A DNA stretch of 64,000 nt from positions 672,001 through 736,000 of the forward strand of contig CAXXTH010000010.1 of assembly GCA_963668025.2 (NCBI GenBank), given 5' to 3'. The stretch's first letter is position 1. Each line of letters opens with the position of its first letter. The translations under genes and the position numbers were made by a program. The notes under the pieces were generated by a model. It was given only the letters and a program-made list of their open reading frames with translations. It was not told where the DNA came from and made no database searches. This document shows positions 36,444-37,044 of the stretch, one piece after another. Origin of the DNA: Candidatus Hydrogenedentota bacterium. Lineage in GTDB: Bacteria > Hydrogenedentota > Hydrogenedentia > Hydrogenedentales > SLHB01.

Positions 36444-37044
36444 GTGCGCCCGGCAGGGCGTGTTTACTTGAAGGTGCAAGTCCTTTACAGGCCTGACAGG
36501 AGGAACTGTTAGCCGGACGGCAAGGGTGTCCATCGCGAGGTGGAATCTGGAGGAAGCCGCAGGCAAATCACTGGCCCGACGAACAGGAACCGCATAGGAG
36601 GCAGCCATGCTGGGTGAGAAGGCCAATAGATTCAAAGCCCCATACCTGTACGGAAAGCATGGAAGTAGATGCGGCGGGCATAAGTGTGAAGGTGAACGCG
36701 CATTACCCGAGGAGATCTGCCAGTCTGCCTTTGCGCTACCAGCGTCGAGAGGCGTTGGGATGGGCTGGCAGAAGTCAGCAGAGGCCATAGTAGTTGGCGT
36801 AAGCCAGCGAAGGGCCGAACCTACGGGAGGTTGTGTACCGGATTTCTAAGTGCTTTGAGCAGATGCCTCGCAAGAGGGCCTAAAGCTGGAAGTAGCGGGC
36901 GGAACTCGCAAGGTAAAGCTGGGCGCTTATACGGCACAAGGCAACGAGGTAGTAGAAACAAGCGAACGTAGGAACCGCCGTATACGGAACCGTACGTACG
37001 GTGGTGTGGGAGGGCGGCGGAGGCGACTCCGCCCCCTACCCGAT
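36444..37044 (+). mobile_element. ORF-less class IIC group II intron (601 nt) related to intron A
   Basis: 5' GTGCGCCCGGCAGGGCG with DI closely matching 20605 onward; DV-DVI identical to 22413-22485; short DIV closed by CCTACG/CGTAGG; no RT. Confidence 0.9.

Follow-up and report, generated by a model that had tools for sequence, protein, structure and literature searches.

The locus at 36444 to 37044 of the window, by which we mean the whole 64,000-nt stretch of DNA analysed here, raises the question of how a group IIC intron without a protein of its own is kept and copied. A sequence-only reading had taken this ORF-less intron, here called the mini-intron, for a maintained satellite of the ORF-bearing intron A, moved by the reverse transcriptase (RT) of A. 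The introns discussed below, their parts, the RT-A ORF and the hairpin in front of the mini-intron all lie on the + strand of the window.

Structure and context of the mini-intron

The mini-intron (601 nt) begins with GTGCG at 36444 and ends with CCCGAT at 37044, and the Rfam matches inside it (RF02001, 144 bits; RF01998, 73 bits; RF00029, 47 bits) cover domain I (DI), DII-DIII and DV-DVI. As regards membership of group IIC, a GUGYG 5′ end, an AY 3′ end and six domains were found. Group IIC introns are defined by a short DV with a CGC triad and a 2-nt bulge and by a DVI with a bulged A; in the mini-intron, DV and DVI (36972 to 37044) have the CGC triad, the 2-nt bulge and a bulged A at 37038. 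No RT remnant was found in the mini-intron, the longest sense-strand open frame being 97 codons, and its description as an ORF-less IIC intron was borne out.

DI (36444 to 36711) has a single C-A mismatch in its presumed closing stem. It contains EBS1 (36624 to 36627), which reads CAAU where intron A has AAAU, and EBS3 (36668 to 36668), which is a G; the spacing of these positions agrees with the numbering given in the structural account of PMC10190682. The expected stems of DII (36717 to 36771), DIII (36783 to 36816), DV and DVI all formed on folding, so the DII and DIII pairings are intact, and so is the ribozyme core. DIV (36820 to 36972) is without an ORF and is the module that defines the family described below. 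Counted with its closing stem (CCTACG/CGTAGG), which is perfect over 6 bp, it is 153 nt long, and 141 nt lie within that stem, as had been estimated (about 140 nt). Its parts are a long interrupted stem, a GCAA hairpin and a DIVa arm, whose tip (36892 to 36912; 5-bp stem, CGGAA loop) is the putative RT-binding site. Folded alone, this DIV was modestly better than shuffles (z -1.6), and it is covariation, not single-sequence folding, that supports its structure.

The window copy is intergenic, with a divergent methyltransferase gene on one side and a dus gene 74 nt downstream. The methyltransferase ORF (34679 to 36076) has 42-nt repeats at 35110 to 35235, in its coiled C-terminal part. A hairpin at 36398 to 36422, followed by a T-rich tract, stands 21 nt before the insertion point. 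In a promoter scan, a consensus promoter was detected downstream of the window copy, ahead of dus, but upstream of it there was none on the + strand. The scan suggested that the transcribed source may be another copy.

Copies and insertion sites in the genome

The genome holds four copies of the mini-intron, one of intron A and 16 of intron B. The four copies have exact ends and are 99.6-100% identical (0-2 substitutions apart). Three are whole; a 1691-nt IS interrupts the fourth, and a copy of intron B follows this fourth mini-intron. One copy lies at C10:11868 of this genome (G000). The flanks of the four copies are unrelated and a hairpin precedes each of them (4/4), at a distance of 6-10 nt at three sites and of 21 nt, which is atypical, at the window site. 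No fixed gene context was seen around the four sites. Copying by DNA duplication was rejected, since the flanks are unrelated and the ends exact. With at most 2 substitutions between them, the copies are recent and, judged from these sequences, the mini-intron is recently mobile. The assembly held no empty allele for the three sites tested, nor was there a same-genus genome among the 135 genomes of the phylum.

The 5′ exons of the mini-intron sites end in TG in all four cases, and those of intron A and of 16/16 intron B sites end in T; the mini-intron is thus inserted at sites that differ from those of A and B. The first C of its EBS1 pairs with the G that closes all four 5′ exons, and among the introns compared (63 rows, 14 of them unparsed) the first base of EBS1 pairs with exon position -1 in 46 of the 49 that were parsed. 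EBS3 pairs with a +1 C in three copies and, as a wobble, with a +1 T in the fourth, where the base was read beyond the inserted intron B; the +1 base is paired by EBS3 in 33 of 40 counted rows. EBS1 and EBS3 therefore match all four sites, and the TG exon ends are explained by the mini-intron's own CAAU. This fit indicates that the copies were made through the mini-intron's own ribozyme. New DNA copies of an intron require reverse transcription. Therefore, following the established mechanism, the copies arose through the mini-intron's own ribozyme with an RT supplied from elsewhere.

Several further features of these sites were noted. Window position 36597 (mini-intron position 154) is G in the window copy, as in intron A, and A in the other three copies, which suggests that the window copy is nearer to the founder. 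The IS inside the C17 mini-intron (G000:C17:954375-956065, 1691 nt) has CCTAAAAA terminal inverted repeats and 22 long matches in the genome. Near-identical hairpins precede intron A (window 20575 to 20604) and the C17 mini-intron (G000:C17:954295-954329), the latter just past a tRNA-like 3′ end. IIC introns were also found inserted immediately after the DVI hairpin of a preceding IIC intron, giving tandem arrays: B behind A (window 22485-22486), B behind the mini-intron (G000:C17:956626-956627) and the further cases L037, L039, L052 and L120, which include a family member behind a family member.

A family of ORF-less introns defined by domain IV

BLAST of the mini-intron against a deltaproteobacterial MAG gave a 648-nt ORF-less intron that is 76% identical over positions 25-601 and has the same DIV. 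A metagenome search for the family with a 29-nt DIVa pattern gave 41 loci, of which 36 have DV 83-91 nt downstream and are ORF-less, two have an RT ORF and three are cut or interrupted. Full-length members measure 595-662 nt, and members also occur on Rhizobium and Sinorhizobium (Rhizobiaceae) plasmids. The 134 other genomes of the mini-intron's own phylum gave one degenerate match, and no match to the DIVa motif was found in viral contigs. In genome contigs, the strict DIVa-to-DV pattern found one locus (L031), a separate A-type ORF deletion. A motif scan of 401 genomes of the phylum of G061, which carries family members, gave two positives, too few for a co-occurrence test.

The DIV structure was assessed on 27 distinct, hand-picked members, and in this set, from whose alignment the structure was itself derived, 95.8% of cells are paired and 22 of 39 pairs are compensatory. 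None of 500 shuffles reached this pairing value, and slid controls stayed at or below 48%. Model R1, built from the same 27 members, scored held-out members at 88-173 bits and the ORF-bearing introns of the A clade at 19-37, with no match to intron B. In a DIV tree made without the searched 18-nt core, the 27 members formed one clade against six other carriers of the motif (100/100). As far as these alignments tell, the mini-intron belongs to an old ORF-less lineage with a conserved DIV that is found in at least three phyla.

The insertion sites and EBS1 vary freely across this family, which bears on whether the mini-intron might be a protein-independent ribozyme (HYER-like hydrolysis or self-splicing) that is kept for a benefit to the host, with mobility incidental. 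Against this stand the need of new DNA copies for reverse transcription, the freedom of sites and EBS1 to vary, the four sites without fixed gene context and the location of the conserved part of DIV, which is the putative protein-binding arm. In its favour are the intact ribozyme core and the protein-free hydrolysis of ssDNA and RNA by ORF-less IIC introns described in PMC11754743 and PMC12990946, yet we consider this explanation very improbable.

ORF-less IIC introns with different DIV types were also observed, namely L119 (NZ_AP024949.1), L098, L099 and L031. One intron with another DIV type is carried by IncP plasmids, where parB and a DNA-binding gene flank it, and its DI is 88-94% identical to that of Pseudomonas-type ORF-bearing introns. 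Independent ORF deletions of IIC introns were seen in the class of G061. L028 (G011:C719) has a B-type DI, a closed DIV of its own of about 200 nt and no match to R1, and is possibly a parallel satellite of the B clade.

Mosaic relationship to RT-bearing introns

The likeness of the mini-intron to intron A changes sharply from domain to domain, with identities of 92% in DI, 65% in DII, 71% in DIII, 52% in 5′ DIV and 100% in DV-DVI, where positions 529-601 (73/73 nt) are the same. The divergence of DII and DIII and the identity of the 73-nt DV-DVI had been reported in the sequence-only reading and were confirmed. The close match of DI to intron A also stood, but the nearest DI is that of L182 (94%), which is an ORF-bearing intron from another genome within the order. 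With the ORF-less L072, the identities are 87% (DI), 78% (DII), 78% (DIII), 83% (5′ DIV) and 92% (DV-DVI); the DIV of the ORF-less L050 is likewise 83% identical to that of the mini-intron. Intron B is more distant at 64% in DI, 60% in DII, 51% in DIV and 70% in DV-DVI.

These values bear on the possibility that the mini-intron arose recently from intron A by deletion. Such an origin would explain DI and DV-DVI, but not the low identity to A of DII, DIII and DIV beside a DIV that is 83% identical to L072 and L050, nor the absence of any ORF remnant. The AU tests rejected a sister grouping of A and the mini-intron on DII-DIII (p 0.0005; the DII-DIII tree is poorly resolved) and on DIV (p 0.001). 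Deletion of A was rejected, because not all domains are closest to A and no ORF remnant is present, and its probability is in our view close to nil. The proposal of an evolved mini-intron lineage and no fresh deletion is therefore supported by the four copies, the cross-phylum ORF-less family with the same DIV, the compensatory changes in DIV and these rejected groupings.

On DI, monophyly of the ORF-less family was itself rejected (AU test, p-AU 1e-11), and the DI tree pairs the mini-intron with L182 as its sister (97/83). L182 is 88% identical to the mini-intron in DII, and 93% and 87% identical to A in DIII and DIV; its switch of type coincides with the conserved end of DII. As L182 comes from a fragmented MAG, in which its contig is short, chimeric assembly is possible. 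Read from the sequences, the mini-intron is a mosaic whose likeness to A comes from domain exchange, in either direction, and it appears to swap RNA parts with a related group of RT-bearing introns. The lineage of the mini-intron is older than A. The idea of a satellite of A thus survived as regards a maintained lineage but was too narrow, as the lineage is older and occurs where A-type RT was not found, and the derivation from A that it implied gave way to domain exchange.

The probable helper reverse transcriptase

Intron A (20605 to 22485) was found as a single copy in the genome search and is the candidate helper. Its RT-A ORF (21155 to 22786; 543 aa, RVT_1 + GIIM) has no stop inside intron A; it reads through DV-DVI and about 100 codons into intron B. 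Of 25 comparators, 23 stop 1-26 nt before DV and the other two are broken earlier. The RT frames of B and L089 also enter DV and stop at its end, with GTG TGA at the place where A and the mini-intron read GTG TGG. Intron B (22486 to 24379), inserted behind the DVI of A, is the rival helper, with a second window copy at 51431 to 53324 and a full ORF in 15 of its 16 genome copies; its DIV also has a CGGAA loop. The RTs in the assembly are those of A, of the 16 B copies and two distant ones, so that RT-A and RT-B are the related RTs in the genome of the mini-intron and the only class C-like ones.

The DIVa tip points to one of these two. The 21-nt motif at 36892-36912 of the mini-intron is found in intron A at 21066-21086, as had been noticed before, and this stem-loop is common only to mini-type introns and introns with an A-clade RT. 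It is exact in the ORF-bearing A, L002, L003, L052 and L058, and in L180, L182 and L183; mismatches number 6 in B and 4-9 in the remaining ORF-bearing rows. On the RT tree, A groups with L002, L052 and L058 (SH-aLRT 98), and B falls outside this clade. Since L002 and L003 were found via DI, and L052, L058, L180, L182 and L183 via the DIVa motif, the link between motif and RT is partly circular. In the structure of a IIC intron, D4a is the high-affinity maturase site (PMC10190682, in the parts of that account drawn on here). As the DIVa motif tracks the RT-A clade and corresponds in place to this site, an A-clade RT is the likely partner. We therefore regard the mini-intron as an intact protein-less IIC intron from an old ORF-less DIV family. 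Its four copies are precise and each stands behind a hairpin, and its splicing and retro-insertion are probably effected in trans by an A-clade RT, in this genome most likely RT-A.

Some results count against RT-A. B has 16 copies and A one, and RT-A, being single-copy and without an in-intron stop, may be impaired. The A-type RT was not found alongside family members in the incomplete assembly of G061, nor on the two single Rhizobiaceae plasmid records that bear family members. Conversely, four of the five genomes with A-clade introns, all incomplete assemblies, showed no family member, and the fifth, G174, has a degenerate one.

The working helper of the same lineage might thus be RT-B, or any relaxed class C "driver" RT. 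No other intron here comes near the activity of B, with its 16 copies and 15 full ORFs, RT-A reads through, family members are present without a detected A-type RT, and driver IEPs have been demonstrated for the IIB introns of T. elongatus in the experiments of PMC2882425. However, the mini-intron resembles B only distantly (64/60/51/70% in DI/DII/DIV/DV-DVI), B departs from the DIVa motif by 6 mismatches and does not match the family DIV model, and the tight conservation of the motif across phyla argues for a specific partner. We consider a driver of this kind unlikely, though a serious alternative.

A different account keeps the A clade and changes the time: an earlier A-clade helper made the copies and has since been lost, has decayed or is unassembled, and intron A is a recombinant bystander. 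The DI-DII closest to the mini-intron sits in an intron of another genome (L182), A lacks an in-intron stop and is still single-copy, the assembly is 93.75% complete, and a third IIC intron has left a 5′ fragment of 234 nt on contig C22. On the other hand, the identical DV-DVI implies recent contact with A, as such identity occurred in 2 of 48 non-independent pairs with a DI identity of 88-96%, and the copies, at most 2 substitutions apart, are recent. This account seems improbable to us. The C22 fragment (G000:C22:52772-52539) lies behind a hairpin, and has an EBS1 of CAAU and an exon ending in TTTTG. This genome also contains four copies of another ORF-less group II intron, unrelated to the mini-intron and about 778 nt long (G000:C14:101912-102689, C10:380477-379699, C10:251251-250473 and C19:180741-181519), and no cognate RT was evident for it in the assembly. 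Its presence counts against RT-A as well, since helpers can be absent or unassembled.

With an A-clade RT as helper, the following course can be proposed. The mini-intron RNA would be transcribed from a host leader, and its retained DIVa arm would recruit the A-clade RT. The RNP would then recognise a DNA hairpin, and EBS1 and EBS3 of the mini-intron would pick the ..TG|C/T sites. Finally, mini-intron and helper may recombine, as both are present in the same cells and share short identical tracts. Such recombination would explain an A-like DI and an identical DV-DVI around a family-specific DIII-DIV.

Significance and comparison with known systems

ORF-less IIC introns are already known, and what is new here is the family-level DIV and the domain swapping. 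According to the sections drawn on from a 2015 review (PMC4424553), bacterial ORF-less introns are rare and nearly always beside a related ORF-bearing intron, and non-mobile derivatives are said not to persist long. In contrast to this rarity and short life, the present lineage keeps a covarying protein-free DIV in three phyla or more, and its gene pool is common to it and one RT clade. The family offers a natural minimal substrate for mapping class C RT recognition. It also gives direct sequence evidence of ribozyme domain exchange between lineages, which complicates a strict picture of RNA-RT co-inheritance. HYER-type RNAs might have a mundane cause for their commonness, as they would be hitch-hikers. 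The gain is mainly for specialists.

A wider interpretation, which we offer tentatively and hold to be rather doubtful, is that of a SINE-like, long-lived parasite of one class C RT clade. It would have spread ORF-less across phyla by the DIVa arm of that clade, would routinely trade DI-DII and DV-DVI with its helpers and so change their target specificity, and may have given its DV-DVI to A, removing the stop codon of A.

The literature search gave no account of the mini-intron DIV family or of class C domain swapping; members may be listed in the supplements of Simon 2008, of Mohr 2018 and of the paper on HYERs. Six family motifs sought in the main texts of the papers gave unrelated matches only.

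GsI-IIC of Geobacillus stearothermophilus (Mohr et al. 2018) is reportedly a proliferating IIC intron at terminators, the copies of which are said to be variants of one intron and not a separate lineage; the sequence-only reading cites it for ORF-less copies. HYERs are reportedly group IIC introns that lack an ORF (Liu et al. Science 2024, doi 10.1126/science.adh4859), and the mini-intron is likewise a class IIC intron without an ORF. In the excerpts compared (PMC11754743, PMC12990946, PMC12750035), HYER1 measures 637 nt against 595-662 nt for the mini-intron family. By description, HYERs are known for protein-free hydrolysis of DNA and RNA, whereas the mini-intron is marked by mobility, a helper-matched DIVa and domain swapping.

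Bacterial class C introns, such as B.h.I1 (PMC1702495) and the one in the full-length IIC intron-maturase structure of PMC10190682, share with the mini-intron the insertion behind hairpins, a short EBS1 and the D4a arm. A single EBS3 about 45 nt downstream of EBS1 is also common to both (PMC10190682). Unlike them, the mini-intron lacks an ORF, and a family-specific stem closes its DIV right after the DIVa module. A parallel in behaviour is found in the TeI3 introns of Thermosynechococcus elongatus, for which the portions used of PMC2882425 describe ORF-less introns that are moved in trans by IEPs, are more numerous than the likely helper and have diverged EBS. The TeI3 introns are non-class C, belong to one genome and carry ORF remnants from a single deletion, whereas the mini-intron family is free of such remnants, occurs across phyla and forms mosaics with the introns that probably help it.
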